Notes: generated by a model from the sequence alone, not told the origin. A DNA stretch of 63,090 bases, filler included, from Basidiobolus ranarum (GCA_040143965.1; 23 parts of 23 records of this genome joined end to end with filler, not necessarily neighbours in it), one strand, 5' to 3'. Numbered from the whole stretch's first letter, positions 2,758 through 63,090 are shown. Made by a program: numbers and translations.

Positions 2758-5413
2758 TATGTAGTAATCAATTCTGTTATTCAAAAAGGTGTGTTTATTG
2801 CTCTAATTGATAGAAATATCAATTAGATCACTTTTACCAATTTTCACTATTTTCTCAAAACTTCTCCACATCACCTCCAATTTTCACCCATGCTTAACAG
2901 GCATGTTTGTTATGATCTAAGCACATCCAATAGTCCTATTTCATAGTAAACTACAAATAGGACATATTCAATTCAATAAAACTTAAGTGTCTATTTCACA
3001 AATCCAAATCTTGTCCAAAACACTTCCAAATCTCTAAAACACTTTTATCACTGTCAACATTTCTATAATCAAAAAAACTGGTCTAAGAAACTCAAAACTG
3101 ACATAAACAAGAAGGTGCATATGGGAGATGACTGGCTACTAGAAGCTCTGCAAGTGGGGGATATTGAAGTGGATCTTGGGGGTATCTCTGGGGATATGTA
3201 TTTGAAACTGAAAAATGTGCAATATGTGCCTGGGATAGGAAAAAATTTGTTATCAGTGAGTAAAGCTCCATCTGAGGGATATAGCTTTGATTTTGATCAA
3301 AATTGCTATGCAATCAGGGTTCAAAAAGGAAATTACATAGCTTCTGGAGCTAAGCAAAATAACGTGAATGAACTTCTTTATATTAGGCCAGTATATGAGC
3401 AAGTTAATACTGCCTCAGCTGAAGAGATAGACTGGAAAATCTGGCATAAGAGATTGGGTCATCTAGGATCTGAAAATATGAGATATTTATTGACAAACAG
3501 GATGGTTTTGGAACTACATTTCTTAATTCCTCCACAACTGGAGCTATGTGAAGGTTACCTATATGGCATGCAACACAAACAGCTATTTGTGGGCTCTGGA
3601 ATGAGCAAAATTGATCATAAATTGGGCCTGATACACTCAGATCTGGGTGGCTCAATGCAGACAAGATCCTTAGGTGGAAAAAGGTACTTTATGACCTTTA
3701 TTGATGATGAGAAAAGAATACTTGGGTGTACTTTCTGGCTGGTTAGGATGAAGCCTTTGATATCTTCAACAAATTCAAAGCAATGGGGGAGATTAAAACA
3801 GGTCTTAAGACTAAGATTTTCCATACTGATAAAGGTCGAGAATATACTTCAAAACTCTTCTCTAACTTCTGCTCAACACATGGGATAAAACCACAAACTA
3901 CATTACCATCTTCCTCACAGCAGAATGGAGTGACAGAATGTGCAAACAGATCAAAAATGGAAAAGCAAGATCAATGCTTCATGATCCAGATTTACCAAAA
4001 CAATTCTGGGCTGAATTGGTTGCAACTGCAGTATATATTAGGAATAGATGTCCATCTAGGTCTCTATTGGCTATGATATCTTATCAAGCTTGGTTTGGAA
4101 GTGAACCTGATGTGGCTAATCTCAGAGTTTTTTGAAGTACTGCATATGCAATGATTCCAGACTTGAAGAGATTAAAATTAGACCAAAAAAGCCAGAAATC
4201 TCTTTTTTTGGGATATTGCAATGGAACAAAAGGGTACAGACTATACAACACTGAAAAAAGAGGCCAATCAAGTCAGGGGATGTGGGATTTGCTGAAGAAG
4301 AACAGTCTTTAATCAAAACAATCCTGGATCAAGAAAACAACCCAAAATTGCTGAAAATATTTCTTTTCTCACCAGATCCTGATTAGTGAGAAAAACATTG
4401 AAAATTCCTCACCCGCAGTCTTCTCAATCAAGCCTGAAGTAGTTTCATTGCCTAAATTGGTACCAGAAGTTGTATGCCAGTTCCCCATCTTGGGAGATCC
4501 AATTGGATGAGATCTCCACCTAATTACTAGCCACACACTAACCAAAGGGAGCCAAGTGCTAATTTAGCCTTTTCTGATGAACCCAAATCATTACAGGAGG
4601 CTATGGAGAATCCCAACACAAAGTTTTGAAGTGCTGCAATGGCAGAGGAGTATTAGTCTCTCATAGATAACAAAAGTTGGACTTTGAGTAAGTTAATGAT
4701 GACCAAAAATCAATTGGATTCAAATGGGTACTTAAAGTTAAACAGCAGGCTGATAGATCTGTAGAAAGATATAAAGCCAGACTTGTGGCCAAAGGATACT
4801 CTCAAATGAAAGTAGTGGACTACAATAAAGCATTTGCTCCTGTAGCAAAGTTTAATTCGATCAGAACCATACCAGTAATAACAGCAATACCTAGCTTAAA
4901 AATCCATCAAATGGATGTTAAAGCTGCTTTTTGAATGGGGACTTGGAAGAGGATATATTCATGGATCAGCCAGATGGTTTTGTGGATCCTGAGTACCCTA
5001 AGGATGTGTGTAAGCTTCAAGAACCACTTTATGGACTTAAACAACCACCCAGGGCCTGGTACACTAAGCTAGACACATACTTGGAATCAATTGATTTTCA
5101 AAAGAGTATGCGGATTTTGGGATCTACTTTGAGACAGATAAGGACAGTAAGGTGATACTGCCTTATATGTAGATGATCTATTTATAGCTGATAAAAGTGT
5201 TTAGGGGATTTGGAAGTGTATTAGACAAGATTTGGATTTGTGAATTAGACACTTGATTGTATTGAATTGAATCTGTCCTATTTATAGTTTACTAGGAAAT
5301 AAGACTATTGGACATGCTTAGATCATAACAAACATGCCTGTTAAGCATGGGTGAAAATTTGAGGTGATTTGGAGAAGTTTTGAGAAAATAGTGAAAATTG
5401 GTAAAAGCAATCT
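2758..5413 (+). mobile_element. Ty1/copia pol remnant (protease end, GAG-pre-integrase, integrase, RT 5' half) between a plus-strand LTR-A (2758-3050) and a minus-strand LTR-A (5189-5413)
   Basis: Motifs [71 protein letters not shown] in IN-before-RT order. Many stops and frameshifts. Confidence 0.93.
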
Positions 5414-19464: not shown

Positions 19465-20393
19465 TCGTAATATAGTTAACTCTGATTCATATCTCTTATC
19501 AAACTCTCGCCTGTTAATTACCCCTATATCGAATATTAGTAAACAAAACCTCTCTGAATTAATAAAATTTCCGTTCGACATATTTTAGCGTGCTCGCTAT
19601 TTGGTACTCATTGTCGTCTCTTCCTACACTGATTTGCGACGTCTCCTGTTGTTCGTTGTTGGCTGCTGATATTTATCGCAAGTGTAACTCTGAATGCGGG
19701 TATAGTTTTACAGTGTTAAGTGAATTTTTGCTAAATAAACACTCTCTGGGTTTTTGGATTGCTACTGTTTACTAAGTTCAGTATATGTCTTCCCAGAACC
19801 CATATTTGAGATTCTCTTCTATCGAGATTCTCAATTTTTTGATACAAAATATCCATGATGTCAGCTAATGTCGAAAGTCTCACCAAATACGATAAAGTTA
19901 AAGTTGACTTTTAATCTTTTGTAATGAACTAAATATGCTCTATCAATAGAAAGCATATATATTCCAAGCTGAATAGCATAGTGCTACATATGAGCGAAAT
20001 TCTCTGCTGTGGTTCAAATTGCAGATACCTTCCTATATTGGCGGTGGTATGATCCAATCACGAAGAACTAAGCATTATACTAGATTCTATTACCATATCT
20101 AACTGAGTTGCGGTAATCCTTTGTACTGAACATCCAAGCATATATAAGCCTTCCCAATCAAATCCTCTATTTCGACAGTTATTTTAAGATAGCGTTGATC
20201 ACCTCAATATGACGACACACCTATCTATTTCCTTTAATTAGAAAATTAGGTCACGAATTACTTTAGCTGATTATATTTCCATATATGGACGGAATTACCG
20301 CATACCATCTTGAGGATCAGTGAACGTGTATTCTCTGGAATGAATATATATAGTGCTCAGTCATTTGGGGTGTTATTATCTTCAATTTACTTC

Positions 20394-21476
20394 ATGTCTC
20401 GCTCTCGCCACCACGATAACCAAGAGCCTTTGCGCACTTCAATCCGCCAACTAACATTCAGGCAGTATCTTCGTAGATACTGGTCTGACTGGGTACTTCT
20501 GATATGTACCGCTGCGTTAGGATTTGGTCTGTACGTAGCACCTCCAGCACCTAATAGGCTTTTCCCAGTCTATTACGACATTAAAAAAAACATAAGCGAC
20601 GACCAGTCAACTCCTACAGACTGGCACACCTTGGCCAATCCTGAGAATGCGTACCCGATTAAAAAGGAGATCATTCCCATGTGGTTGAGTGCATTCCTGT
20701 CATTTATTTTCTCATTTTTAACCTTCCTTATTACCCAATATTGGAAACGCTCATGGACCGACTTTCACTCGGCATTGATGGGATTGTTTTACTCCTTAGG
20801 AGGTTCAGGCCTATTTCAAGTTTTTTGTAAATGGTTGATAGGAGGCTTCCGCCCACACTTTCTGGAGGTTTGCAAGCCAGATTTAAGCAAAATCAGTCAA
20901 CCGGGACAAGGATATGATCATATCTACTATGATCGCTCTGTATGTACAGGAGATGAAAGAGAAATCAATGATTCTCTACAAAGCTTTCCTAGTGGACATT
21001 CTAATGCGGCCTGGGCAGGCTTACTCTTCCTCTTCTTTTACCTGAATGCCAATCTTAAACTTTATTCCCATCGTCGTACACCCTATTGGAAGCTCTTAGC
21101 CACTACATGGCCAATCCTCGTCGCATCTTTAATCTCGCTCACTAGGCTCTTAGACTACACTCATCACTGGTATGATATCTTCATCGGAATGATCATTGGA
21201 TGCGCTTACGCAACTTTAAGCTGGCGTATGCAATATGCTTCCATCTTCAACTGGAGGGTCAATCACATTCCGCTAGATGAATACAGCGCAGAGCTAGATC
21301 AAGAGAGTCTTCCGTATCATAACAGATCGAATGAGACAGGCCACAATGTCAACTCTACACATTATCCAATGACTGAAAGTAGCTCGACTCATGATTACCA
21401 TAGTTCCAATCCCAGTCACAATATGGACGCTAACCAAGACTTTATGAAACCTGAAAGCAGAGTTACTCAAGCCTAA
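20394..21476 (+). CDS. PAP2-family lipid phosphate / diacylglycerol pyrophosphate phosphatase (Dpp1/Lpp1-like), intronless
   Basis: All three PAP2 motifs: KWLIGGFRP, SFPSGH, TRLLDYTHHWYD. Multiple TM segments. TATA-like element at ~20343-20352 before the ATG at 20394. Confidence 0.93.
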   Translation: MSRSRHHDNQEPLRTSIRQLTFRQYLRRYWSDWVLLICTAALGFGLYVAPPAPNRLFPVYYDIKKNISDDQSTPTDWHTLANPENAYPIKKEIIPMWLSAFLSFIFSFLTFLITQYWKRSWTDFHSALMGLFYSLGGSGLFQVFCKWLIGGFRPHFLEVCKPDLSKISQPGQGYDHIYYDRSVCTGDEREINDSLQSFPSGHSNAAWAGLLFLFFYLNANLKLYSHRRTPYWKLLATTWPILVASLISLTRLLDYTHHWYDIFIGMIIGCAYATLSWRMQYASIFNWRVNHIPLDEYSAELDQESLPYHNRSNETGHNVNSTHYPMTESSSTHDYHSSNPSHNMDANQDFMKPESRVTQA

Positions 21477-22038: not shown

Positions 22039-24691
22039 GTTTTCACTTATTGATTTATTGAGTAGAAAGTTGACATTTATAGTTTTGTCAAGATGTAAAC
22101 AAACTAACATGTAGAATATGTTAAGAAAGGTCCCAGGAACATGTGTGCAGAGTTTGGGGCTTCTAGCACAAGTTTGAAAAATCTATATATCTGAGAACTT
22201 CTAAGTTGGTAGAATATATTCCAGTGTCTGCAAACTTTTTTAGGCTTTCTGGGCCTACAAATCCACCTGGCTGATCCATATAGATCTTCTCAGTTAGCTC
22301 ACCATTTAAAAAAGCAGCTTTAACATCCATTTGATGTATAACAAAATGATATTTAGCTGAAATTGCTAAAATCAAATCTATTGAATTAAACTTTGCTACT
22401 GGAGTAAAAGTCTCAGTATAATTTATTCCTGGTGTTTAGGAATAGCCTTTGGCTACTAGTCTAGCCTTATATCTTTTATATTGCCAACATAGTTTTGTTT
22501 AACTTTAAACACCAATTGGCAGCCAATTGATTTTCTATCAGCAGGTAAGTAGGTGTAAATCCAGGTTTGATTTTCAATCAAAGCCTGATACTCATCAGCC
22601 ATTGCAAATCTCCAAAATTTTGTGCAAGAGCCATTTAGGGCCTCTTTTACAGTCTGGGGTTCATGTATTTGATCTGTGCAGGCATAGGCCTGATTTTGAC
22701 TCATTAATATAGTAATCAGGGCTATTTCTGATCTGATTTGATCACCTGGTTTGGGATATAGGTAAGACAACTACTGGCAATGTATTGGGCACTTCAGTAG
22801 GCAGAAATTTGGTTGAAGGGTCCACAGGAATGCTATTTTCTACATTGTTTTGGTTTCTATTATAATGCTGTTAGCTCTTTCTGTTGCAGGATCTTGACAT
22901 AATGGGGGTAGACTTTGGGTACTAGAAGCTACATATGATAGTGTGTCTTAGTTGCTTTATTCTTAAGAGTATAAGGTGACTTGAATAGTAGAAAAGTGAA
23001 TTGATTGTTTGAGATATTCAGGAGTTTGTGTAATCAGATACAGTAAATATGTGGGAGTAATGAGACATACTTGTTATATAGATATAGAGATATTCCTATT
23101 TAGAATATAGGGGCTATAGATATGTTGCTTTCTGTTTCTGATATATGTTTCATAACTAAAGTTAACTAAGATGTTGAATAAAGACTAATTATCCAACACC
23201 TTCCCTTAATTATTATTCAGCATTGTGCTTATATTCACTAATGCCTATTTTCTAAGCAATGCATCCAAAGATCCTCAAAAATTTTGAATCTGGTTTAACT
23301 CCAAACCAAGCTTAATATGGTGCAAAGTTAGACAGACTTTTAGTAAAACTCTTATTCTTCAAATATACAGCTGTAGCAACAGATTCCACCCAAAAGTTTA
23401 AGATAAATTTTGAGCATTTATCATAGATCTTGCCACTTCAATTATAGTCCTGTTAACTCTTTCAGCAACTCCATTTTGTTGAGGTAAATAGGGAGCTAGA
23501 GTTTCTTGCTTAAATCCATGAACTTTGCAAATGTGATTAAATAGTGTTGAAGTATATTCTCCAACATTATAAGCAGGTATTTTCTTATATTTACAGTTTT
23601 GTCAAAATATAAGCAAACCAACATGTAGAATATGTTAAGGAAAGTCACAGGAATATGTGTGCCAAGTTTGGAGCTTCTAGCACAAGTTTGAAAAGTCTAT
23701 ATATCTTAGAACTTCTAAGTTGGTAAAAATATTCTAACTAAATTCCAATTGAGAATAATTGATGATATCTTAGTGAGCTATAAGATAATTAAGTACTAAG
23801 TTATATATGACTATATAGGTGTTTAGGCAATGCTAATTTCAACAAACATTGAGGTGGCCTTGCATGCAGATATTAAAATCTTGGCAATATTGGGACAATG
23901 TAGTACTTTCTCAAAGGTGTACACTTTCTCTTCAGAAGCACTAGTTAAATTGACTTGAATTGCTCCCATTCCAATGGCATACAACATACAGTCATCTCCC
24001 ATGAAAACCTTTTTAATTGGGATTTCTTCATAATCCACAAATCAATGTTTCTCATTTGTGAAATGTTGAGAGGCTCCAGAATCAATATCACATGTATGAG
24101 AATTCTTGTTGATAGTCATAGATAGAGCAGATATGAACAAGTGATCTTCTGCTATCATCACATTTCCAGATTCAGTATGTTTTTCTTCTTTTGCAATTCT
24201 TTAAAGGCAATCATTACTTGAATGGACAGTGCTTTTACAGTAATTACTGAATGTGTTAGTTTTATTCTTAAAGGGCCTTTGACCTTTATAGGAAGGTATT
24301 CCATAGCCATATTTTCCCAATAATAGGAAGATTTCCCATTGACTATTGAAGCATTTTCTTCATTCTTTTGGTTGGATCCCCATTTGTGTAAATCTTCATC
24401 CAGAAGTCTATCAAGTATGTAATTTAAGGTCACCTTTAAGTTAAAGAATTGATATTTAGTTATGTCAAGATATAAATAAACTAATGTGAAAAATATCTTA
24501 AGTAAGGTCCACCAACTTCTCTGTTTTTCTAAACCATTTCTGACAGCTCCCAAATTTTCAGATAATATTGGGAAACTATGGGCTGTTTGGAAGAACTTTA
24601 CAAAAGTGGAGTTGTGAATAGCTTTGTGAGATAATTGTTTATTGTCCTGAAATAAACCATTTATTTTTTTGGTAGAAATACAGAAAACTAA
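22039..24691 (-). mobile_element. Nested Ty1/copia debris: gag zinc knuckle, protease, integrase and RT start interrupted by LTR-C (22039-22222, 23587-23844), LTR-D (22869-23198) and an LTR-B end (24566-24691)
   Basis: [37 protein letters not shown] homologies within the window. Confidence 0.88.
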
Positions 24692-24791
24692 NNNNNNNNN
24701 NNNNNNNNNNNNNNNNNNNNNNNNNNNNNNNNNNNTTAATTAATTAANNNNNNNNNNNNNNNNNNNNNNNNNNNNNNNNNNNNNNNNNNNN

Positions 24792-29127: not shown

Positions 29128-29678
29128 ATGGAAGATGTTATGTGATCCCTTACTCAGCTTCAGCAAGAAAATCAAGGACTCTGTACTTCCATTGCTCAAG
29201 TACAGAATCCAGCTCCACCAAACTATACTCAATTCCTACTCCTGAACCCAAAATCTCCTTACAAATAAGTTTGATGGTACTCACCAAAACTATCGTGATT
29301 TTATTAACCAAGCAAAGCTTATCATACAGTTACATCCCCATCGCTACCCCTCTGACCAAACAAAAGTAGGCTTAGTGGCAACACTCTTATCAGGAACAGC
29401 TCTGTCTTGGTTTGCTCCTTTAATGGAAAGTCAATCTCCACTTCTTTCAAACTTCCTTGCCTTTCTTGCTGAACTGCAGGCCACATTTGGAAATGCAGAT
29501 AAAGAAAGAACTTCAGCCACCAAGCTCTGTGTACTTAAACAAGGGTTACAACCTGCATCAACTTATGCTGCAGAATTCCGCCTTCTTGCCTGTGATCTCA
29601 ATTGGGGAGAATCTGCCCTGATCAACCAATTCCAACATGGACTCCAAGAAAATATTAAGGATCTTTTACTCCCTATGG
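29128..29678 (+). pseudogene. Ty3/gypsy (chromovirus-type) gag remnant
   Basis: PEPKISL..KFDGT, LLSGTALSWFAPL, LKQG..ASTYAAEFRLLA.DLNWGESALINQFQHGL. Confidence 0.9.
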
Positions 29679-30194
29679 TATTGGGAAAATATGGACTGTT
29701 TGGAGGAACTTTAGAAAAGTGGAGTTGTGAATAGCTTTGTGAGATAATTGTTTATTGTCCAGAAATAAAGCATTTATACTTTTTGTTGGAAATATAGAAA
29801 ACTAACACTGGGGTTGTGTTCAGAACATCTGTGGGAGTAAAATGAGCTATCTTTGGGGCAATTTGGACGAGTTTGAAATTTCCACTATGGAATTGCTAAT
29901 TCTCACATTATTCACATATATATATAATATATGTTCCAATTTTCAGCTAAGTGACATTTGACTAAGTAATGTTAACTAACTTATATGTGATATATGAAAT
30001 AGTCAGGTGTATAACGATAGAGATAACAAATATGTTAAAGACAATAAACTTCAACACTCCCACTCAACTAAATATTCATATAACTTAATCCTAACTTAAA
30101 TCTTAATTCTTCAAATTTAGGCTTGGGTAATGGTTTGGTAAGGATGTCAGCAATCATGTCCTCAGTTGGACAGTACTGTAGTTGGATGTGCTTA
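29679..30194 (-). mobile_element. Ty1/copia 3' end with complete LTR-B (29679-30056), PPT and RNase H end, inserted in gypsy gag
   Basis: YCPTEDMIADILTKPLPK, PPT AGTTGAGTGGGAG, TGTTGAAG...TTCCCAATA. Confidence 0.9.
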
Positions 30195-30402
30195 NNNNNN
30201 NNNNNNNNNNNNNNNNNNNNNNNNNNNNNNNNNNNNNNTTAATTAATTAANNNNNNNNNNNNNNNNNNNNNNNNNNNNNNNNNNNNNNNNNNNNGGCCAG
30301 TTTGGGATGATACAAAGCGGGGCGAATGGCCCCCTGCGGCCTCTTAAAAGGGGGAGTTCCTAAAACCCCCCCCTCTCGGAAGCCTGTCCCCAGTAAAGGG
30401 GG

Positions 30403-31326
30403 CACCTTCCTGCCGAAATTGGAGATTATACCGATTTCTATGCCTCAAAAGAGCATGCCACCAACGTTGGAATTATGTTCCGTGGTAAAGAGAATGCACT
30501 TATGCCTAACTGGACCCATCTTCCAGTTGGTTATCACGGAAGAGCTTCTAGTGTTGTTGTTTCTGGTACTGACCTTGTTCGCCCCAACGGTCAACGAGTT
30601 GCTACCAAAGGTGAACCACCAGTCTTCGGTCCTTCTGTTCGTTTAGACTATGAATTAGAAATGGCATTCTTAGTTGGTACCGGTAACGAGCTTGGTAAGC
30701 CAATCACCATTAACGCCGCCAAAGATCATATTTTCGGTGTTGTTGTCATGAACGATTGGAGTGCTCGTGATATCCAATCTTGGGAGTATGTTCCATTGGG
30801 TCCTTTCCTCGGTAAGAACTTTGGTACAACCATCTCCCCTTGGGTAGTCTCCTTGGAAGCTTTGGAACCATTCTTGGTTGACCAACCCCATCAAGATCCC
30901 CAACCTTTACCTTATCTTAGGGATAATGAGAAGGCAGGTTACGATATCAACCTTGAAGTTCAAATCAAACCAAGAGGAACCAATGAATACCACACTGTTA
31001 CACGCTCTAACTTGAAGTACATGTACTGGTCTTTCAAGCAGCAACTTGCTCATCATGCTGTTAACGGATGTAACATGCGTACTGGAGATCTCTGCGGTAG
31101 TGGTACTATTTCTGGACCTACCGAGGATTCTTTCGGTTCTCTTTTGGAACTTACCTGGTCTGGTCAAAAGGAATTGGACCTTGGAGGTGTCAAGCGTAAG
31201 TTCATCGAAGATGGCGATGAAGTTTTGATGACCGGATTTTGCAAGGGTGATGGGTACACCATTGGATTTGGTGATTGCGTGGGAAAAATCATTTCTGCTG
31301 TCAACTATGAACAAATCAATTTATAA
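30403..31326 (+). CDS. fahA: Fumarylacetoacetase (tyrosine catabolism), 5'-truncated
   Basis: [78 protein letters not shown]. Confidence 0.96.
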
Positions 31327-33369: not shown

Positions 33370-34707
33370 TCACTTCAAGTCACCAAGGGCCTCCGCTATA
33401 GGGAGAATATTCTTGAGCCATTTTCTATTTTCTGCCGCATGAAGAGATTCTTTCCATTTCTTCAGTACAATGGCAGTGCTATCTTTAGCAAGATCCTTGA
33501 TGGAACCCTGAATTCCATTGGATTCAGCCATGCTGAGAAGTCCTGTTAGAGAGGCAATTGTACCAGCTACACCGATAGCAGATACCACTCCAGCTGGAAT
33601 GTTTCCTGTGGCGAAGAAACCGATGGTACTGACGATTCCACCAAGAACCATAGCTATGGAGGCTGGACTGATAGAAGTCGTATGCAGATCAACACTGCAG
33701 TCCATGATTTGCATAAACATATCTTGATCCCACCAATAAAAATCTGCATTCCAAAAATTTCCACCATGATTAAGGAAATGCCACTTGAGTGGATCTGGAT
33801 TGAATTGAAGATCTTTATCACAAGTATTTTCATATGGTTCTTTACCAGCACCACACCCAACAGTAGGTGAATCAAGAAAGGCAATCTTGAATCGCCCATC
33901 ATGCGGGACATCCAGCTCTGTGGCCTCGGTGTCAATCGGGATATCCAACTTCTTAACGGCTTTGCTGTAGCAATCAAACTTGGTTTTTTTGTCGGAGCTG
34001 CAGGTTGCCAAGAGCATGTAATTGATGTTGATGGCTTCTTTTAAGTTGATGCCATAGCTCCTCTCTTGATAGTATGGCATCTCTTGAACAAGGTTACCAT
34101 TGATACGATGAAGGTAGAATTTAGCATTCTTAGAGTCCTCAGTGAGCTCGTCAAAGATGCCAATTCCATCTAGAATTAAACCTCTCCCATCATCAACAGA
34201 TTGCAGCGCAATGTTACCATAGTTAGTCTTCTCAGTGATGATGAATATATAGCTATTCCATCTGTACCATAACCCCGCAGGCCCACTATTGGTGGGAACC
34301 ATATGCCAAGGTTTAATATCGCGATACAGTTTGTCCCCTAGGCGTATGGTTAACGGCTTGTTACGGTCCCAGTTGGCCACTGCTAGAACAATCAAATCAT
34401 GTAGATTGCGGTCATAAACCATTGTTTGTGGGGACCAGTATTCCTGTAGCTTATCTGGGTTACTTTCAAAGCGTGACTCCAAGACGTTGCGAATGCACTT
34501 GTCATAAGGGAGTTGGAAGCCTTTTTCGAACTCTGTTTGGAGTTTGACACTTCTAGGTACCAGGGAGTTTGTAGCATTGCATTTCATTGGTGGAGGTGTT
34601 GAATCCAGCAGGAGGTAACTTTCATCAGTAAGGTTAGCGCATCGAAGTCCTTCGAATACGCCACCATGTGCAACGGCTACCAGAGGGAGAAAAAAGAGCC
34701 AACGCAT
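33370..34707 (-). CDS. Uncharacterised secreted protein, 445 aa, with a C-terminal Gly/Ala-rich hydrophobic hairpin
   Basis: Intact intronless ORF, signal peptide MRWLFFLPLVAVAHG, 8 Cys, NLT/NAT sequons, TATATAAG about 70 bp upstream. Confidence 0.85.
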   Translation of the reverse strand: MRWLFFLPLVAVAHGGVFEGLRCANLTDESYLLLDSTPPPMKCNATNSLVPRSVKLQTEFEKGFQLPYDKCIRNVLESRFESNPDKLQEYWSPQTMVYDRNLHDLIVLAVANWDRNKPLTIRLGDKLYRDIKPWHMVPTNSGPAGLWYRWNSYIFIITEKTNYGNIALQSVDDGRGLILDGIGIFDELTEDSKNAKFYLHRINGNLVQEMPYYQERSYGINLKEAININYMLLATCSSDKKTKFDCYSKAVKKLDIPIDTEATELDVPHDGRFKIAFLDSPTVGCGAGKEPYENTCDKDLQFNPDPLKWHFLNHGGNFWNADFYWWDQDMFMQIMDCSVDLHTTSISPASIAMVLGGIVSTIGFFATGNIPAGVVSAIGVAGTIASLTGLLSMAESNGIQGSIKDLAKDSTAIVLKKWKESLHAAENRKWLKNILPIAEALGDLK

Positions 34708-34754
34708 ATTCAGTAAGTGTGAAAGTGAGCTGGGTAAAAGAACTTAAGATTCAT

Positions 34755-41180: not shown

Positions 41181-41280
41181 NNNNNNNNNNNNNNNNNNNN
41201 NNNNNNNNNNNNNNNNNNNNNNNNTTAATTAATTAANNNNNNNNNNNNNNNNNNNNNNNNNNNNNNNNNNNNNNNNNNNN

Positions 41281-41594
41281 AGATGGATAAGTACCATCCT
41301 GGTTACTTCGGTAATGTTGGTATGCGTCAATTCCATTTGACCCGTAACCAACACTACCGCCCCGTGGTTAACCTCGACAAATTGTGGACTTTGGTTTCCG
41401 AACAAACCCGTGTCAAGTACGCTGATAACAAGGAAATCGTTCCTGTTATTGACACTCTTCGTGCCGGTTTCGGTAAGGTTCTCGGCAAGGGTCGTCTTCC
41501 TGAGCAACCCGTTATCGTCAAGGCTCGTTATGTTTCTCGTCGTGCTGAAGAGAAGATTAAGCAAACTGGTGGTGTCGTTGTTCTTACTGCTTAA
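41281..41594 (+). CDS. RPL28: 60S ribosomal protein uL15 (L27a / yeast L28), 5'-truncated
   Basis: [40 protein letters not shown]. Strong codon bias. Confidence 0.96.
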
Positions 41595-42530
41595 GTTTTT
41601 CCTTTGTATTGAGAATGCTTTCCCATTACAAATGACCCCTAGAATTTTGCTTATTAAATAAATATTGTGAAATACAATTTATGTTGTCATTTTACATTTT
41701 TTGTAGAAATACTGTCAGTACGAAGTGGCATCTAGCCAAGCCCATGAAGAAGATACAAATGAACCCCAAAAACAATATCTAAAAGTGATGGTTAAGAAAA
41801 AGCAACAATGCTTAGCATATCTGATTGACTAAACAGATCTCTCAAACCAGTAATAAATTTATCAAATATTTTAACAACGAACTTTAAACGCATATCTAAA
41901 AGGTTATCTCATTTGAGAGTATGAATTACTATTTCTATATAGATATGTATATATAATCATGAATTTCTCTCCTTTCGTAATCACTCCTTTGAGGATATAT
42001 ATTGTTCATATTTGCAACGTGGACAGCTTTCAGCAAGAAACAGCAGTTTTCTTCCCAGGGTCCACACTAAATCTGATACCCATGGAGGCTGAAATGGATT
42101 TTCAAATCTAAAAACAAAACCAAAGAAATTGGTGTTATTAAATGTGGTAATGACGTACACTTTTATTATGCAGAAGTCAATCAACTAATCTTAAAGATAT
42201 ATACAGATTGAACAATTATATTTACATATCAGCACATATCGTTTATTTTCTTAGTTCATAAATCTTACATATCAGTCGTTATACTCTTAGTTGGTGAATC
42301 TTATCGATGCTCCGAAATGTGTACAAAATAGTAACCGATTAGCCATTAAAGCTCAAACCTACACCACCAATCAGGGGTTCTCCACCAACGCAGTGGCGTA
42401 TTGAACAGTTTATAAGAATATAACGTATAAACCATGGAAGGGCCTTGATACCGCGTGCATTCCTCTACTTCTGCTCGTTTTCCCTTGATTGGAGTTGGTT
42501 TTGTAGAGATCAGAGTATAATTACTAACAT

Positions 42531-43112
42531 ATGCCTTACACGAATCAACGTCATAAAGTCGTATTGCTTGGAGACGGAGCAGTTGGTAAAACCGCATTGA
42601 CAGTTCAACTTTGCTCAGCTCACTTTCTTGAAACTTATAACCCAACTATTGAGCATTGCTCTCATACCCAAGCAGTAATTGATAATAAACCGTGTTTACT
42701 GGAGATTCTAGATACAGCTGGACATCAAGAGTTCACCACATTACGAGATCAGTGGATTCGAGAGGGTGAAGGTTTCCTACTGGTTTATTGTATCGCGGCC
42801 CGATCGAGTTTCGAACATGTTGAAGTGATTCGCAATGAAATCGCTAAAGTGCGTGATATCAGTAAGACACCAATCCTGCTTGTTGGAAACAAATGCGATA
42901 AAAGCTCAGAGCGAGAGGTATCTCAATTTGAGGGACACGCATTAGCCAAGCGTATGGGATGTCAATTCATCGAGAGTTCAGCCAAGACCGCGGTCAATGT
43001 GGAGATAATCTTTCATCGGATGGTCCGTATGATGCGATCGAATAATGAGGAATATTATCGAAAGAAAATGTGTCCCATTAACAAAATGAGACTAAAGTGC
43101 GCACTAATGTAA
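42531..43112 (+). CDS. Ras-family GTPase (fungal Ras2/RasB-like, divergent), intronless
   Basis: GDGAVGKT, DTAG, LRDQWIREGEGF, NKCD, ESSAK, CaaX CALM. Confidence 0.95.
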   Translation: MPYTNQRHKVVLLGDGAVGKTALTVQLCSAHFLETYNPTIEHCSHTQAVIDNKPCLLEILDTAGHQEFTTLRDQWIREGEGFLLVYCIAARSSFEHVEVIRNEIAKVRDISKTPILLVGNKCDKSSEREVSQFEGHALAKRMGCQFIESSAKTAVNVEIIFHRMVRMMRSNNEEYYRKKMCPINKMRLKCALM

Positions 43113-43676
43113 ATACCTAACCAGCATTGTACTTATTTAGTCTAATAGATGTAGCATGATCAAAACTCACCTCAAAACCCACCTTTATCTTGCCAGTCCA
43201 CTTTTACCTTGCTAGTAAACATATATATATATGCAAATATCAATTCGGTCAAATTAAATTTTCAATTTCTCAGATAAGATATGTTCTGGGTCCATCTATC
43301 CATATATTCTATAGAATCACGAGTACTTAAATGTGGTGGTTGAGTCTTGCAAATAAGTACCCCATTATTCTTTACCATATTGGCCAATCCTGTTGTTTGC
43401 TCACTATTTTTGGATTAGATTTTGGAACCTTTAACAGGCTTAGATACACCCTTAGATCAACCACCTCGTGTTACCTTAGCCTGAACCTATGGGCTTAAAG
43501 AATGATAGTGGCGTTTGTGTTTTCACACCTCGTATTTAGAACTAAAGGTTTTCGTGACAGGAAAAATTGTAGAATGGCAAATGGGTATATTTATTATACA
43601 TTTTAAAATACAAATGGCTATACATAGGGTTTCTATTTTTACAGTTTCCTAAGTGTTTACAATTCAGTTAAACGAA

Positions 43677-43924
43677 TTACATCAAATGACATTTACTCCT
43701 CATCTTGTTAACGGAGCACATCTTTCGAGGTGACTCTTCGTCATTATTGGAACGCATCATGCGAACAATTCGGTGGAAAGTTTTCTCCACGTTTACTGCT
43801 GTCTTGGCCGAACTCTCGATGAATTGGCATCCCATACGCTTGGCTAATGCATGTCCCTCAAATTGAGATACCTCTCGCTCTGAGCTTCTATCGCATTTGT
43901 TTCCAACTAGCAGTATTGGTGTCT
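43677..43924 (-). CDS. Second Ras paralog, 3' part, tail-to-tail with the first; absent from the ORF track
   Basis: TPILLVGNKCDRSSEREVSQFEGHALAKRMGCQFIESSAKTAVNVEKTFHRIVRMMRSNNDEESPRKMCSVNKMRSKCHLM*. Confidence 0.93.
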
Positions 43925-44902
43925 NNNNNNNNNNNNNNNNNNNNNNNNNNNNNNNNNNNNNNNNNNNNTTAATTAATTAANNNNNNNNNNNNNNNNNNNN
44001 NNNNNNNNNNNNNNNNNNNNNNNNCAAAAGTGCCTCACCTTTGGGAAGCCTTAGCTATGTTCCAGCACTTCAAAGTAATTGAAGAGAGCAAATTAGCACA
44101 AAAAACAAAGGTGCCCAGTAGAGATAATTTATAAGAACACTGCCCTAACAAGCTTGCTATTTTATGCTCTAAATATGAAATTAAGCAACATATTACTGTT
44201 TCTGATATTGCACAGCAAAACAGAGATGCTTCATGTGCTAAAAAACCATATTGGAGATGGCAAGATTAACATTAAATGATCAAAAGTTATAATACCAATT
44301 TTTGATTAATTTAGTCGCCACTGCAGTCAACATCAAAAAAGATGATAAACAGCATTGCTAAATATTATACTCCATTTGTAGCCCTACATGGATCAAAACC
44401 ATGTTTGGAACATCCCAGGATCCTTGGTTGTGCCACACACCACCAAATTCTAGCTCAAAAACACTCTAAATAACAGTCCAAAAGCAACTAAAGTGTTCAT
44501 TGTTTGTTGCTGTGCTGAATCTGATGCTTGCAAGCTGTAGGAGACTAAAATGGTAGAGTTAATCAAGAGTAAAGATGTAATTTGATGAGAAAAGCTAATT
44601 TTCATCCTAAATCAAAGCTCTTGAATTACATAAGAAATTCAGTAATGTTCAGGATGTTTTTGACAAAATTGTGATTTGTTCTGTGCTCAATTTAATGAAA
44701 TATTTGGTCCCAGTCACAGTAGAGGATTCTTCAGGACTTTGCAGGACATCCAGAAGGATAAAGAAGCCAGGGAACTGTTGCAATACATTTTATCATAATG
44801 GTTATATTTAAGCACCATGCTGTGAAAATCCATGGGCTTTACATCAAGTTCTGGAAAGTCCAGAATCAAAACTATTTGAAATAGCAATGGTAAATATATA
44901 TC

Positions 44903-52247: not shown

Positions 52248-53704
52248 AATCAAAGCTGCTTCCTTTACAGTAAGTGTTATGAGTGGACTAATGTTTGCCA
52301 ATAACAAAGAGTCTGTAACAAAACCATTGTCTTCTTCTTCAACTTCTGATATACTACATTGGTACTGGAATAAATGAGGTTGACTTCTAGCATGAAGTTC
52401 TCAAAGTTGTCTGGACTTACTGGTATAACTAAAGTTACATTTTGACCTACATCATTCTGGTCATATAACTGTGGTAACTTCACATTATCTTGACTTTTGG
52501 CAGTGTTGCCAAAACTTTGAGGCAAACTACAGTCAGTGGACTCAATTGGCAAACTAAAGTCAATTTATTGCACTTATTATTGTTGTTATACACCAGGCTT
52601 TGTGCAGCTGATGGCTTTATACAGTGCCCTTGCTAGTGATTATTTTTTCTATGAAGCCTCTGGCTTTCATAGCACAGGAATTTGCAACAATAATAGCAGG
52701 GCTTCTTTGAACGTTTGTTTTGCAGCATGAGAAGGATATTGTAGAAAAAAGAACACCTCCCAAGTAAGGGTGGTATTTTAGGTATAGCCAATCAATAGCA
52801 TCAGCTGCTTCTGATATAGTGTCATAGATGAGTCATCAGGGGATTTGCAAGTATTTCTGGTGATGGATAGCAATTTTGGTTTTTTATAATCTGTTTCCAA
52901 GCAATTCCATTGCACCAAGCTTTCTGTTTGAAAATTTCAATGCCATTCACAAAGTGTTCGAAATTTAAGTCAAAATTGGCTTTCAAGCCAAAGCCTGCTG
53001 GCACAAAGGAAAAAAACCAGCAAGAACAGAGGACTTAATTGATGAGTAATGTAGTAATCTGCTATCCACTTTGGAAGGGACTAACATGCCAGAAAATAAC
53101 TCAAGTAATGATGAAGCATTCATCAATTTACTGGATGTGTTGCTTTCCAGCAATAGTGCAAGTGAAGAGAATGTAATCCCCCAATTACACAGTAAAGCAA
53201 TAGTTGAGCAAAGATCAACACAAACACAGTCAAGACCATCAACTTCCAAACTGGCTACTTTGCCTGCTATTGAACAACCCTCTGTAGAAAATTTGGATAG
53301 AATTATTACAACAAGGGAATTGCAGACAGAACACCACAATGATTTGTATGCAATCTCCCTGTGTCCATTCTCATATGGCATTTCAATGGACTTGTTCTTG
53401 GTGATAGTGCCAGATTGTACTGTATATATCATATTAGATAAAGTATTCTCAAATTTATGCGGCACAATTTGGTACTATCCATCACCCTCTGGCATGATCA
53501 ATTTCAATCACATTTACTCTAATATATTGATCCATGGTCTGATAAATCCTGGCACAATGGAACAAGTCCAATCAATCCCAAACCATACATATGAATGTCA
53601 CTATGACAATCTAGCAGAGCAGAATATATGTTAGATCATTAAGCTCACACAATGACCTGAAATTTCTTGTGCACATGAAAATAGAAATCTCATAGGAAAA
53701 CTGG
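52248..53704 (-). mobile_element. CACTA/CMC internal fragment (reverse orientation): transposase 5' part, bidirectional spacer, ORF1 5' part
   Basis: Reverse complement of ~47140-48750. Confidence 0.85.
53388..53569. mobile_element. 182-bp MITE, TIR GGACTTGTTC, TSD AAT
   Basis: TTTCAAT-GGACTTGTTC...GAACAAGTCC-AATCAATCCC. The empty site TTTCAATCAATCCC is present in the paralog at ~60740-60753 (minus). Confidence 0.93.
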
Positions 53705-57621: not shown

Positions 57622-57721
57622 NNNNNNNNNNNNNNNNNNNNNNNNNNNNNNNNNNNNNNNNNNNNTTAATTAATTAANNNNNNNNNNNNNNNNNNNNNNN
57701 NNNNNNNNNNNNNNNNNNNNN

Positions 57722-58297
57722 CTGAATCTGTTCAGGCTGTGATTGCTCATCGACTTGTGGTTCCTCCATCAATACTGGCTGACTTTCAGTTGAGCTGCCA
57801 GTCATCTCTGTTGATTGATAATCTTGGTTAGGAGTTTCCAACTGCTTATTTTGTTCTGGTTCCATTTGTATATCGAGGAGCCCCGGTTCACTCTGGACAT
57901 ATCCTGAACTGGATGGAGCTTCCGATCCACTTTGCTTTGCAGATGCCGATTTAGTAAACTCCCCCTCAACTTCTACGCTGGGACCAGTTTGATATTTAAT
58001 ATTGATACTTTTCTTGTGGTTAGCTTCAGCTGTATTGAGATTATCGTGTTTTCTGGTGATAGTAGTGAACACTTGCTTCATCACTGGTGCTTGGGTACTT
58101 CCACTTGCGAAAAATGAAGGAGTTTGTTGCATTTGTGGTCCTTGCTCACAAGCACCCCGTTGCTGCTCACACGGCCCATTAGAATAGTGAGTGGCAGCAG
58201 GTGCGTTGACTCTGGGTGCGAAGTAATTAACAGGTGTTGCACTCACTACCAGAACCAAAGAAGTACACGAAGCTAGTAGGGTGAGAGCGAGTTGCAT
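57722..58297 (-). CDS. Secreted Q/S/E/T-rich low-complexity protein, 5' part
   Basis: Signal peptide ending VSA-TP. Open to the contig end, in CpG-normal DNA. Confidence 0.78.
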
Positions 58298-60259
58298 ATT
58301 TAGATTGTTGTTTGAATGTTACTCGTTAGGAGCCACTTTTATTATCAAAATTCCAATGTGAATAATACAAAGTTTTAGATGAAAATCACTAAAATCGTTA
58401 CTTTTATCGAAGTTTCCGGGGAGTATACTTCATTGAGGAGTATATATTTATACAATTTGTAGTAGCAATGCTATAAGAATGTGATCAATTCCAATGATTC
58501 GGTCATAAATCCGCTTGCAGTTCTAATAATAGTAGTGAGAGATCCGTTAATAGTGAGACTTTCATTTTGCTAGCATTAGTACGTCATTATGGCAGTATTC
58601 CGAGTTTAATTCATGTCGGAGTGCATGTTTGGGGTGATTTAAAAACAACTTGGTGTATACAACAAAGGAAGATTGGTGCTCACATTTTCAACAGACGAGA
58701 GGATATTCTGGGTCTACTATGCTTGACTATTAGTACTTGTTATTCATTTGAAATATTACTTTAATGAGTACAAGTGAATTTTTCCAGTAAAATAGAAAAA
58801 GTACATGACGAGTGTTGTACTTTCCAAACGAATTAACAAAGTCCATGATACTAACGCAGCAATAGCCAGTTGAGTATTTGGATCATCATTTGAAGGCGAA
58901 GAAATTTTAAGCAAGGTAGTTAGATGAAATATCCTAGTACTGTGATGCTTTTAGCTAGGAACAAGCAAAGTTGGGTAGATTCCATTTGTTCGGTAATGAT
59001 TACTACTTGAAGCAATCTGAATGCAATATTAACCAACAGTGGCAGATCAGCTGATAATAAAGCTCGGGTTTATATGCTCATACATTAGTCACTAGTATAA
59101 AGGTATGACAGTGTTCCGAGTCTGATTCATGTGCACAGATAAAAATTCTATTATACAGTGCTACTTGGGTGAATATATAATCAATAATTGTTGAGTGATC
59201 TATACAAGTATGTATATCCAACTCAGTCTACTTACTTGATTCAGCCAATATTCAATGAGTAAGAACCTGAAAACAAGGACTACTTAGGCTGTAAAAGCTT
59301 AGGGTGGATTGAAGATATCAACACAGACTTGAATTCTTTCACATATATCGCTTTAGTAAAGTGACTATCACTAAACATTCACTCTGAGTGGATCTAATCA
59401 TCATTGCCTTTATTTCACTCTGACTTGATGAAAGTAATCTTATCAAAATCATCGCCAACCGGAGTTTCTAGATAGTATCACCACACTGTTGATTAAAGGA
59501 TGCATTATATATATTATATTATACTACACGTAACGAACGGAACCTTTGAGATACTTTACTACCACTCGGTGGGTTCATTTATTATAGCGTTAAGGGTTTT
59601 ACGATTTACTTTAGTATATTTACCGGGGATCTACTAGTCATGACCGACAGAGGCGGTGAATGGTTGGTAATGTATCTCTTGAAAACTGGATCAATATTCG
59701 ACAAGGCAGTTGGGTCGATAATGAAATCTAACCTCAACCCTGGAATAGTTTTAGGTAACTTCAGCAGCATACCGTAGTAGGGTATGGAATATTATTAAAC
59801 AAAGGATTAGTAGGGTTTACATAGGATTCCATTCATCACGATTAAGAGTTTAAGGTTGATGTCCTGAGGAAGTGTTCTAGATCTCAATCACAAACCTTGT
59901 TTTCTTATTTGGCGATATAAACTGTTCCAACCTTGCTTACTACTTTGGGAACTGATCTCTCCATTCCTGACTAGGTTACTGATCTTTCTAATATTCCGAT
60001 AAGTTTGTTCATTCAGTGGAGATTCTTCGTTCATTCAATAGGGACTCTTGTCGAAATTTTTGCTGTATCGTAATTATCCTCCATTGGACGATGGGTTTTA
60101 GAGTATCTGGGCATTGGTTAAACTTTTGTATTCCAGGCCTGTCTATACTAGTCTAATTTCAATTTGAGAATATGTGATTTCCGTCCAAAGTAATCCGGAT
60201 GCTTGATGGCAACTGCGTATAAATACCGTCCACCTCATTCCAGAAAAGTATACAAAATC

Positions 60260-60456: not shown

Positions 60457-63090
60457 AGTCAAGAACCTTCAGAGTAACGCCTGGTTTTTGGTTTTTCCAC
60501 CATTGACTCAAATCCAGGTGATTTTGGGCAAGATTCTGCACAGTTTCCAAAATGTTAAACCACTCATTATCAGAGCAAGTGATGGCTGCTCTGACATCAA
60601 AGTCTTTTGGTTTGCTGGTTCTCCAATGAGATTTCTACTTTCATGTGCATAAGAAATTTCAGGTCACTGAGAAGGCTTGATGGTCTGACACATATTCTGC
60701 TCTGCTAGATTGTCACGGCAACGTTCATATGTGTGGTGTGGGATTGATTGAAATCCCATATGAGAATGGATGGAGGGAGCAGCATGTTGCTGTAGCTCAA
60801 GTACAGCATTCTGAAGGTCTTGAATCGTTGTTAAGTGACTCTCTAACTTGTGACTAGTTGCTTCCAAATGCTGCATTAATTGCAATATTGTGGCATTATT
60901 ACTTGTCACGGCCTTTAGAGCTACTTTGTAGTTTTTACTTATGATTGCATACAAATCATTATGGTGTTCCACCCATGATTCCCTTGTTGTAAGAACTCTA
61001 TCCAAAATTTCTGTGGAGGGTTGTTCAATAGTGGGCAAAGTAGCCATTCTGAAAGTTGATGGTCTTGATAGTGCTTTGGTTGACCTTTGCTTAACTATTG
61101 ATTCACAACATGATTGGGGGATTACAATCTCTTCACTTGCACTATCACTGGAAAGGAACACATCTGGTATATTGATTAATGCTTCATTATTACTTATGTT
61201 AGTTTCTGTCATGTTAATGCCTTCCCAAGCGGATGGTGGAATGCTAGACTGCTCATAAATGGGGTCCTCTGTTCTTGCTGGTTTTTCTACTTTCTTGCCA
61301 GCAGGCTTTGGCCTGGAAGCTGATTTTGATTTAGATTTTGAATGCTTTTTGAATGGGATTGAAATTTTCAGATTGTAAACTTGGCACAATGAAATTACAT
61401 AGAAACAGCTTGTAATAAGCCAAAATTGCCATCCGTTACCGGAAATATCTTGTAAATCCTCTGATGACTCATCAACAACACTGTCTCAGAATCAGCTGAT
61501 GATATTGATGGGCTATACCTAAAATACCACCCTTATGTGGGAGGTATTCTTTTTTCCATAATATCCTTCTCATGTTGCTACACAAACCCTTAAAGAAGCC
61601 CTGTTATTATGGTCACATATTCTTGTGCTATGAAAGCCAGAGGTTTCATAGAAAAATAAGTCACAAGCATGGTCACTGTACAAAGCCACCAGGTGCAGAA
61701 AGCCCGGTGAATATCAACATTAATAAGTGCACAAAATTGACTTTAGTTTTGCCCACTGAGTCAACCGACTGTACTTTATCTCAAAGTTTGGGTAACACTG
61801 CCAAAAGTCAAGATACTGTGGAGTTATCACAGTTATATGACCAGAATGATGTAGATAGAAATTAAAATTTGGTTGAACCATTAGTCCAGGCAACTTTGAG
61901 GACATGCTGCAAGATTTTGACCTTGGGTATTCCAGTACTGATGCTAGTATATCAGAAGTTGAAGAAGAAGAAAATGGTTTTGTTACAGACTCTTTGTTAT
62001 TGGCAAGCATTAGCCCACTCATAACACTTACAGTAAAGGAAGCAGCTTTGATTATTGAGCAGTGGAGAGTTCAATCCAATCTTAGCAACCATGTGTTTAT
62101 TGGTTTTCTTACACTTTTACCACAGTTGATTGGTAACTGTTGCTTGCCACAAACCTGGTACAAGTGGAAAGCACTTGTCAATTGTATGCCTTATAATCCT
62201 TCAGTAATTAAACTAACTGCATGTCTGAATGATTGTGTGGTTTTCACTGGTGATCTGAAAAACCTGAAGTCATGTACTGTTTGCATGCAATTGGCAATCA
62301 CTGAATCAATATAATATTGTTCATATTTGGCTTACACACTGTTCTTTCCCATCTTAAAGTTTTGATGAAATCACACAAATATAGGTCATTGATCCAATAC
62401 CAAAGTACTCACCTTAAAGCTGATAGTATTACCAATATACTTGATGGACATCACTACCAGAATCTGAAAAGTCAAGGTTTTTTTGAGAACACATATGATC
62501 AGGCATTTGCATTGGCTCTGGATGGTTTCTTGCTAAAAAAATAATCCATTGAAAAGGCTTGCTGGCCAATAATTTTAATTAACTTAAATCTTCCTCCTTC
62601 CAAACAGTATACGAGCTATGATGTTGTGATAGCATCCATCATATCTGGACCTAAATGACCAGTGCTTATAGATAGCTACTTGGAGCCTTTGATTGTGGAA
62701 TTTGAATGGTTATCTAAAGGGGTTCAGATGAGTGAATATTCTATCAAAGCTTATATCATAGTATGTATTGGTGAAACTCCGGCCATTGGTAAACTTGCAG
62801 ATTTTTGCCAGCACAATCCACCATCTTACTGTACATTTTGTCAGATCTATGGAGTCTACTCAATCAGGCATATGCATTACTATTTTCCAAAGACAAAAGT
62901 AAACTCCATGATGTTACCATCAAGAGCCCATTTGGATTTTGACATAAACACTGATATCAGTTCACCCAATAGTCAGTCTAACATCAAACTTGATATTAGC
63001 CATAAGCCTAAGATTATATTGCTAAAGGGGATCAGCTGGAGCCAGGTCTTCCCATTAGAGAGAATGCAATAACTATAAAACAACCTTCCA
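60457..63090 (+). mobile_element. CACTA/CMC internal fragment: ORF1 (minus, from ~61432) and Transposase_21-type transposase (plus, from 61572), decayed
   Basis: ACLNDCVVFTGDLKNLKSCTVC, AFALALDGF, WPIILINLNLPP, DSYLEPLIVEF, GETPAIGKL, CTFC. Confidence 0.9.

Follow-up and report, generated by a model that had tools for sequence, protein, structure and literature searches.

A Ras2-type GTPase paralog of Basidiobolus ranarum with a natural Gln61-to-His change and a rewritten effector loop

Position 61 of Ras is among the most studied residues in biology, and its change locks human RAS on. In KRAS, the Q61H substitution is described, in an excerpt of the relevant source, as lowering intrinsic GTPase activity and impairing the hydrolysis stimulated by GTPase-activating proteins (GAPs) (PMC11274496), and the title of the PDB entry 6mnx reads 'Structural basis of impaired hydrolysis in KRAS Q61H mutant'. 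Here we describe a natural occurrence of the same substitution in the fungus Basidiobolus ranarum. In a window of 63,090 bases from the genome assembly GCA_040143965.1 (the whole stretch of DNA that was analysed), an open reading frame (ORF) at positions 42531..43112 encodes a divergent Ras2-type small GTPase with histidine in place of the catalytic glutamine and with a rewritten effector loop.

One of the described systems close to this protein is fungal Ras2, for example Ras2 of Ustilago/Mycosarcoma maydis (P0014) and the canonical Ras2 proteins of Basidiobolus itself (P0011 and P0043), with which it shares a clade, 55-64% identity, length, the lack of introns, a gap-free alignment, a P-loop of the GDGxVGKT type, the NKCD and SAK motifs and a C-terminal CaaX box. 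It differs from them at four of the nine positions of the effector loop and three of the eight positions of switch II, the catalytic Gln included, as well as by Ala at Ras position 13 and by a CaaX box that ends in M rather than L. With human KRAS Q61H (PDB 6mnx and 9bgb), the G domain of which is about 45% identical, it shares the same change at the same structural position, and the codon change is of the same third-base kind as in human RAS Q61H (CAA/CAG to CAT); in contrast to the human mutants, however, the His of the fungal protein is germline and species-level, and is accompanied by E62Q, Y64F, G13A and the rewritten effector loop.

Sar1, a member of the Arf family, also has a His that corresponds to Ras Gln61, and the Sar1 motif places a Gln one residue after this His79, just as in the Basidiobolus protein. 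However, the latter matches the Pfam Arf profile with 31.5 bits compared to 165.9 bits for Ras, and Sar1 is not prenylated and has Sec23 as the dedicated GAP that turns it off, whereas the protein described here carries a CaaX box. Rnd1-3, RhoH and Rap (Thr61) are naturally occurring Ras-superfamily proteins in which the catalytic Gln or other residues of hydrolysis are missing and in which control is exerted through expression and turnover or through unusual GAPs, as outlined in the excerpted parts of two sources (PMC13236570, PMC2265111). These are animal Rho-family or Rap proteins, most of them, according to the former source, also without Gly12 (PMC13236570), whereas the Basidiobolus protein derives from fungal Ras2 and has retained Gly12. 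Such members being well known, the protein does not represent a new class. In its mode of action, it would resemble either the atypical GTPases without a residue needed for hydrolysis or those that rely on alternative catalysis. A literature search found no work on these paralogs among the matches listed, as judged from their titles and abstract openings.

The ORF and its motifs are as follows; residue numbers of the protein equal human Ras positions + 4 (His65 is Ras 61, Ala17 is 13 and His42 is 38), and Ras numbering is used below unless residues are given explicitly.

42531..43112, + strand: divergent, intact, intronless Ras2-type small GTPase ORF, 193 codons, with the stop (TAA) included in the coordinates
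42570..42593, + strand: P-loop GDGAVGKT, residues 14-21; Gly12 kept, Ala at Ras 13
42636..42662, + strand: switch I/effector loop YNPTIEHCS, residues 36-44; D33N, D38H, S39C and Y40S, with Tyr32 and Thr35 kept
42711..42734, + strand: switch II DTAGHQEF, residues 61-68; Q61H, E62Q and Y64F
42888..42899, + strand: G4 motif NKCD, residues 120-123; guanine-specificity motif intact, with N120, K121 and D123 in invariant columns
42978..42986, + strand: G5 motif SAK, residues 150-152; intact
43071..43109, + strand: membrane-targeting tail made up of the CaaX box CALM (residues 190-193), basic residues and, upstream, a conserved Cys181

The frame opens with the first ATG that follows an in-frame TAA and runs uninterrupted through 193 codons to the terminal TAA. 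Neither an intron nor a longer gene model is needed, given that relatives of 185-195 residues can be aligned with the ORF over its full length; an antisense ORF of 83 amino acids (42346..42597) that overlaps the promoter and the 5' end of the Ras-like gene was treated as a chance occurrence. The assignment to the Ras family is far beyond chance: the Pfam Ras profile (PF00071) matches residues 9-168 over profile positions 1-160 of 162, with an E-value of 7.1e-49 and 165.9 bits (cut-off, 21.6). A sequence search of the PDB retrieved Rap2A, Rap1B, KRas, NRas and HRas chains at E-values of about 1e-45 to 1e-47, with the Rap2A, Rap1B and KRas alignments extending from end to end without internal gaps. 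An AlphaFold2 model built from a 17-row alignment (predicted local distance difference test score of 70.1, predicted template modeling score of 0.72) has the topology b1-a1-b2-b3-a2-b4-a3-b5-a4-b6-a5, that is, a canonical G domain, and its top Foldseek matches are Rap2A (1kao, E 2e-19, template modeling (TM) scores 0.75/0.86) and KRas, with TM scores in the range of 0.74-0.86.

The complete set of Ras-family motifs is present, that is, G1 GxxxxGK[ST], the G2 Thr35 (T39), G3 DxxG, G4 NKxD and G5 SAK; the catalytic Gln61 is not, with His occupying residue 65, but membership in the family stands because Rap lacks Gln61 as well. Relative to canonical Ras, the changes are G13A, D33N, D38H, S39C, Y40S, Q61H, E62Q and Y64F, to which R41H is to be added, and the codons of His61 (42723..42725) and His38 (42654..42656) are both CAT. 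The initial annotation, which had been made from the DNA sequence alone, recognized here a clean ORF for a Ras2-like GTPase with a natural Q61H and a rewritten effector loop, an identification with which the Pfam match, the alignment and the tree agree, and every motif that it named (GDGAVGKT, YNPTIEHCS, DTAGHQEF, NKCD, SAK and the CaaX box, which reads CALM) is found in the translation; its list of changes holds as far as it goes but leaves out D33N, E62Q, Y64F and R41H. Residues 42-45 of the effector strand (42654..42665, + strand) read His-Cys-Ser-His; of the lineage-specific substitutions by His in this protein (D38H, R41H and Q61H), two lie in this strand, beside a Cys, an arrangement that may be a metal or redox site or a coincidence.

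To place these changes, we compared the protein with its relatives. A protein search with the ORF yielded 217 proteins at E <= 0.001 among 276 candidates; the best 120 of these 217 make up the set of relatives to which the counts in this and the next two paragraphs refer unless another sample is named. The fungal Ras2 baseline in this set consists of GDGGVGKT (71 of the 104 readable P-loops), YDPTIEDSY and DTAGQEEY, the latter two being dominant in the set and invariant in nine canonical Ras2 rows of the alignment. Because the fungal Ras2 type is the proper baseline, D at Ras 11 and T at Ras 17 are family traits rather than changes of this protein. Ala is the native residue of Rho-family P-loops at Ras 13. 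The P-loop GDGAVGKT recurs in 8 of the 104 readable P-loops, and Ala13 is found also in further Ras1-like ones; thus, G13A, which had been listed on a par with the other changes, is present but is a mild change. Position 61, on the contrary, is nearly fixed: the 116 readable switch II sequences have Gln in 112 cases, His in two (the present protein and P0003 from Basidiobolus meristosporus) and Thr in two, the latter pair being Rap-like. In a wider sample, a library of representatives at 50% identity that gave 46,046 proteins at E <= 0.001, of which the best 150 were considered and 147 new ones aligned, the 173 domain alignments that cover the site have Gln in 101, Thr in 36, His in 4 and other residues in 32. 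The four His61 alignments come from three representatives (P0136, P0150 and P0179) that read DTAGHEEY, DTAGHEDA and a degenerate DMSSHEEN in which DxxG is lost. Natural His61 in Ras-like proteins is, by these counts, rare but not unique, recurring elsewhere, and residues other than Gln are common at this site among divergent, lineage-specific members.

The nearest relatives all come from Basidiobolus and show 81-88% identity:

P0002, B. meristosporus CBS 931.73: 81% identity, Gln61
P0003 (K493DRAFT_304868), B. meristosporus CBS 931.73: 83% identity, His61 and Arg13
P0006, B. meristosporus CBS 931.73: 83% identity, Gln61; shortened gene model without the C-terminus
P0004 ('RAS2 protein, partial'), B. 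ranarum: 88% identity, Gln61; partial model of 143 residues without the C-terminus

They are followed by P0007 and P0008 from B. ranarum (61-63%) and then by the canonical Ras2 of many fungi (55-64%). We constructed two trees, namely a quick maximum likelihood tree of 44 rows chosen from the relatives, with all columns, and a careful tree of 25 rows from which the six trait columns (Ras 13, 38-41 and 61) were removed. In both, the protein belongs to a clade of five rows that consists of Basidiobolus sequences only; the support is 99 in the quick tree (Shimodaira-Hasegawa-like approximate likelihood ratio test, SH-aLRT) and 99/99 in the careful tree (ultrafast bootstrap/SH-aLRT). Together with P0007 and P0008, these rows form a seven-row clade (96 and 98/95, respectively) that is nested within the fungal Ras2 clade, which includes Ras2 of Mycosarcoma maydis (95 and 96/89). 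The canonical Basidiobolus Ras2 (P0011 and P0043) and the Ras1-like and Rap-like rows are placed apart, and the stem branches of the clade are long (0.37 + 0.45 in the quick tree). Since Basidiobolus also has canonical Ras2, the gene is an extra paralog rather than the orthologue of Ras2, and the explanation we propose is that of a Basidiobolus-specific offshoot of fungal Ras2 that goes back to gene duplication and whose genes occur as local pairs of paralogs. The phylogeny of paralogs and orthologs, which had been put forward as a check in the initial annotation, thus confirms the Ras2 affinity, whereas the treatment of the gene as a one-off does not hold: it is one of a small subfamily, restricted to Basidiobolus, where the majority of the changes are older than Q61H. 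Identity with Rap/Rsr1 was considered, given that Rap2A is slightly the best match in the PDB search and that LEILDTAG..F is Rap-like, and was rejected, both trees placing the protein within fungal Ras2 and starred branches of the 44-row tree separating it from the Rap-like rows P0103 and P0117 (DTAGTEQF).

The switch II sequences of living paralogs form a series, from the canonical QEEY through QQEY (P0007) and QQEF (P0002, P0004 and P0006) to HQEF (the present protein and P0003). The seven-row clade shares D33N, E62Q and Ser83Cys; at the level of the five-row clade, G13A, Y64F and variation at Ras 39 and Ras 40 are added, with Ala13 in four of the five members and Arg in the fifth, P0003. 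All five members have YNPTIE, xQEF and Cys at Ras 83, so that P0002, P0004 and P0006 resemble the present protein in these features but keep Gln61; P0003, in turn, has His61 in common with it but lacks D38H and R41H and has Arg instead of Ala at Ras 13. D38H, R41H, K48N and A156I are found in the present gene only. From this distribution, E62Q, D33N, Y64F and the shift of the CaaX box from a terminal L to a terminal M (CaaL to CaaM), as well as G13A and the variation at S39 and Y40, preceded Q61H.

Whether His61, which is seen in these two of the five members, originated once or twice depends on the branching order within the five-row clade, which is unstable. With all columns, the protein pairs with P0003 (support of 84 in the 44-row tree); with the trait columns removed, it pairs with P0004 from its own species (92/87), and the His state then needs two changes. 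Forcing the protein and P0003 into a clade costs 8.3 log-likelihood units (p = 0.026 in the approximately unbiased test), a marginal result in which P0004 is a partial sequence of 143 residues. We lean towards two origins; the trait-free tree speaks against the two His61 proteins being simple orthologues by shared descent, and we make no such claim. P0003 and P0006 may perhaps form a local pair like the one described below, a hint that comes from their shared longest-contig value (84253).

The C-terminal tail differs from canonical Ras2 as well. The last residue of the CaaX box is M in all five full-length members of the seven-row clade, compared to L in 43 of the 51 canonical Ras2-type relatives; accordingly, the box of the present protein, CALM, departs from the Leu-terminated Ras2 type, and the three members of the five-row clade with complete C-termini (the present protein, P0002 and P0003) all end in CaaM. 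A CaaX box with L as the last residue directs geranylgeranylation and one with M directs farnesylation, so a change of the lipid anchor is predicted. A Cys located 9 residues upstream of the CaaX Cys (8 in P0003) is kept in the present protein, P0002, P0003 and a second Ras-like copy that is encoded next to the gene:

43677..43922, - strand: partial Ras-like paralog, convergent (tail-to-tail) with the ORF; residues 113-193 plus stop, ending in CHLM; 84% identity in a tblastn search, E 4e-42

A gap of 565 bp separates the two genes, and the neighbour runs into the N spacer at the end of the assembly piece, which cuts off its N-terminal half including the switches. This is probably a Gln61-type copy, judging from an overlap of 28 residues with P0004 (Gln61) in which the neighbour is identical at all 28 and the present protein at 27. 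A tblastn search for a second full Ras-like copy in the window found none, this partial copy being the only one and all other matches having E > 2.

Comparison of the two copies over 81 codons reveals 47 nucleotide differences, with dN of 0.095, dS of 1.18 and a dN/dS ratio of 0.08. For the 56 G-domain codons, dN is 0.031, dS is 0.59 and dN/dS is 0.053; in the 25 codons of the tail, dS is saturated. For residues 113-193, the values show strong purifying selection since the duplication, as an average over both copies. Neutral decay, which the initial annotation had named as an outcome that would overturn its view, is therefore not what we see in this gene, with dN/dS of 0.08 between the paralogs and with the G motifs and prenylation signals conserved. 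Between species, the protein is about as conserved as a ribosomal protein (83% identity to P0003, compared to 84% for RPL27a, both with B. meristosporus). The distribution of the substitutions is nevertheless different from that in canonical Ras2: in the five-row clade, variable columns are as frequent in the switches (6 of 28) as in the rest of the protein (22 of 95; Fisher p = 1), whereas in canonical Ras2 the switches are nearly invariant (1 of 27 versus 29 of 88; Fisher p = 0.002). Together, the dN/dS ratios, the between-species conservation and the counts of variable columns show that the protein is maintained overall, whereas the special constraint on the switches has been lost or changed.

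The nucleotide-binding motifs, Gly12, Thr35, Gly60 and the prenylation signal are seen to be intact in the translation, and the explanation we favour is that the product of the gene is a functional small GTPase anchored in the membrane. As to how this GTPase works, the analysis points, with belief and doubt about evenly balanced, to a slow-hydrolysing, largely GTP-bound derivative of Ras2 that is off the canonical effectors and is set by expression, localization and turnover. Such a protein would still bind GTP and Mg2+ and would still switch conformation, but its hydrolysis of GTP would be slow and would respond weakly to a conventional arginine-finger RasGAP, leaving it mostly GTP-bound. The effector specificity of Ras is carried by residues 38-40, as established by the classic effector-loop mutants. 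Through the usual contacts of D38 and Y40, the canonical Ras2 effectors (proteins with RA/RBD domains) would no longer be engaged, so that the protein might signal to another partner or to none of the old ones. Like that of other atypical small GTPases, its output would be governed chiefly by expression, localization and turnover, and the predicted shift from CaaL to CaaM would bear on the localization. The presence of Arg13 in the other His61 carrier, P0003, suggests that the constraint imposed by hydrolysis chemistry has been eased in these copies. The expression-controlled atypical GTPase that the initial annotation had envisaged has parallels, inasmuch as atypical, constitutively active GTPases ruled by expression and turnover are, in the excerpt of the source, an established class (PMC13236570); its reading of a constitutively GTP-bound Ras with new effectors is plausible, but the step from Q61H in human Ras to a constitutively GTP-bound or GAP-insensitive state in this protein is an extrapolation.

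Several considerations weigh against this explanation. Slow hydrolysis, GAP insensitivity and altered effectors are all carried over from human Ras mutants, and the confidence of the AlphaFold2 model is only moderate. The dN/dS ratio covers residues 113-193, outside the switches; being pairwise, it averages two copies, so that the constrained one cannot be told apart, and dS is near saturation. The comparison of switch variability involves five clade rows, two of them shortened models, and nine canonical rows chosen from 120. Moreover, His is catalytic at the position of Ras 61 in Sar1 (PMC2150902, PMC2265111), and a Gln next to the site may matter, given that Gln63 of Rap can serve as the catalytic residue when plexin or dual-specificity GAPs act on it (PMC3787391) and that here a Gln is found at Ras 62. 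We hold our confidence at the middle level stated above because three precedents, those of Sar1, RapGAP and the plexin and dual-specificity GAPs, keep regulated hydrolysis without Gln61.

These precedents form the core of an alternative under which the protein still switches on and off normally, though by an altered chemistry, cycled by guanine nucleotide exchange factors and GAPs and not constitutive, with the water positioned by His61, by Gln62 or by a GAP residue in trans. In Sar1, His79, the equivalent of Ras Gln61, is required for the hydrolysis stimulated by Sec23 (PMC2150902, PMC2265111); Rap, which lacks Gln61, is switched off by an Asn thumb supplied in trans by RapGAP (PMC2265111), and plexin and dual-specificity GAPs draw Rap's own Gln63 into the active site (PMC3787391), all as reported in excerpts of these papers. 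The Basidiobolus series fits such a scheme in that E62Q came first, QQ and then HQ, so that a Gln is always present beside the site, and in that Gly12, where the arginine finger of a GAP must fit, is kept; because of the retained Gly12 and the Gln at Ras 62, a mechanism that involves a co-evolved GAP has to be taken seriously as an alternative. Yet in a Ras scaffold Q61H cuts both intrinsic and GAP-stimulated hydrolysis, at least in the excerpted account (PMC11274496), the Gln lies at site 62 here and not at 63 as in Rap, so that its reach to the active site is hypothetical, and Arg13 in the His61 carrier P0003 would be odd if arginine-finger catalysis were preserved; on balance, we regard this alternative as rather unlikely, although it is the strongest of those considered.

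Very unlikely, in our assessment, is a redundant duplicate drifting to loss, either a pseudogene in the making or a non-signalling, nucleotide-bound scaffold, in which the switch changes would be noise of relaxation. Simple relaxation predicts switches as variable as the rest of the protein, as is indeed found in the clade, and the long stem branches and the several copy-specific changes (D38H, R41H, K48N and A156I) are also in line with drift. It accords poorly, however, with a clean frame of 193 codons in DNA of 35.5% GC, with G motifs and a CaaX box that are all intact, with dN/dS of 0.08 relative to a paralog diverged to dS of about 0.6-1.2, with the upstream Cys and the CaaM box kept across paralogs and species, and with a between-species divergence that does not exceed a ribosomal protein's. 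That His61, His38 or both are sequencing or assembly errors is more improbable still. The pieces of about 2.6 kb in the window imply an assembly of low contiguity, and D38H is found in no other sequence of the alignment; but the identical DTAGHQEF is read in an independent genome (P0003, B. meristosporus), which, as to His61, makes unlikely the sequencing error that the initial annotation had allowed for. Furthermore, the ORF contains no frameshift or stop, and the changes are single-base substitutions inside an otherwise well-aligned gene.

A divergent Ras paralog without Gln61 is of little surprise to a specialist; what is of interest are the intermediates and the possible recurrence of Q61H. 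A His61 Ras that appears to be kept by selection beside Gln61 sisters, with QEEY, QQEY, QQEF and HQEF all present in living paralogs, amounts to a natural experiment on which second-site changes make Q61H tolerable or useful, and offers a route to ask whether His or the adjacent Gln supports catalysis in a true Ras scaffold. It also suggests a lineage-specific expansion of signalling in Basidiobolus, a fungus that is associated with the gut and occasionally acts as a pathogen. A fuller scenario, which we consider doubtful, is that Q61H arose more than once within this Basidiobolus-only Ras2 subfamily, in the present gene and in P0003, after a permissive E62Q, and was then kept by purifying selection. 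If so, selection would repeatedly favour either a hydrolysis-crippled, expression-controlled Ras or one that works, together with a co-evolved GAP, through a Sar1-like His or through a neighbouring Gln, and either outcome would be accompanied by the altered effector surface (HCSH) and by a different type of prenyl group.

The window is not a single molecule but a series of 23 pieces, of about 2.64-2.75 kb each, joined by 22 spacers that consist of N44 + TTAATTAATTAA + N44 (for example, 41181..41280 and 43925..44024). Features on separate pieces are therefore physically unlinked, and many genes are truncated where a piece ends. Apart from the two Ras-like genes, the piece in question contains one other feature:

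41281..43924: assembly piece with the Ras-like gene, containing three features (the RPL27a fragment, the Ras-like ORF and the partial Ras-like paralog)
41283..41594, + strand: C-terminal 103 codons of RPL27a (L27a/uL15), truncated where the piece begins; Pfam Ribosomal_L27A, E 8.6e-16

The RPL27a fragment shares 97% identity with its B. ranarum match (with 87% of the query covered) and 84% with that of B. meristosporus, which assigns the piece to a Basidiobolus near B. ranarum.

On other pieces of the window, the stop-free frames at 33373..34743 (-), 60667..61485 (-), 57677..58318 (-), 24161..24739 (-) and 53050..53631 (+), of 193-457 codons, have no Pfam match at E <= 0.001. Two open frames encode recognizable enzyme domains, namely a PAP2 phosphatase domain at 20271..21473 (+; E 4e-27) and a fumarylacetoacetate-hydrolase domain at 30397..31323 (+; E 1.2e-35). 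Finally, two retrotransposon fragments were identified, one at 2980..3885 (+) with Pol beta-barrel and GAG-pre-integrase domains and the other at 29246..29731 (+) with Ty3-type gag/capsid domains.

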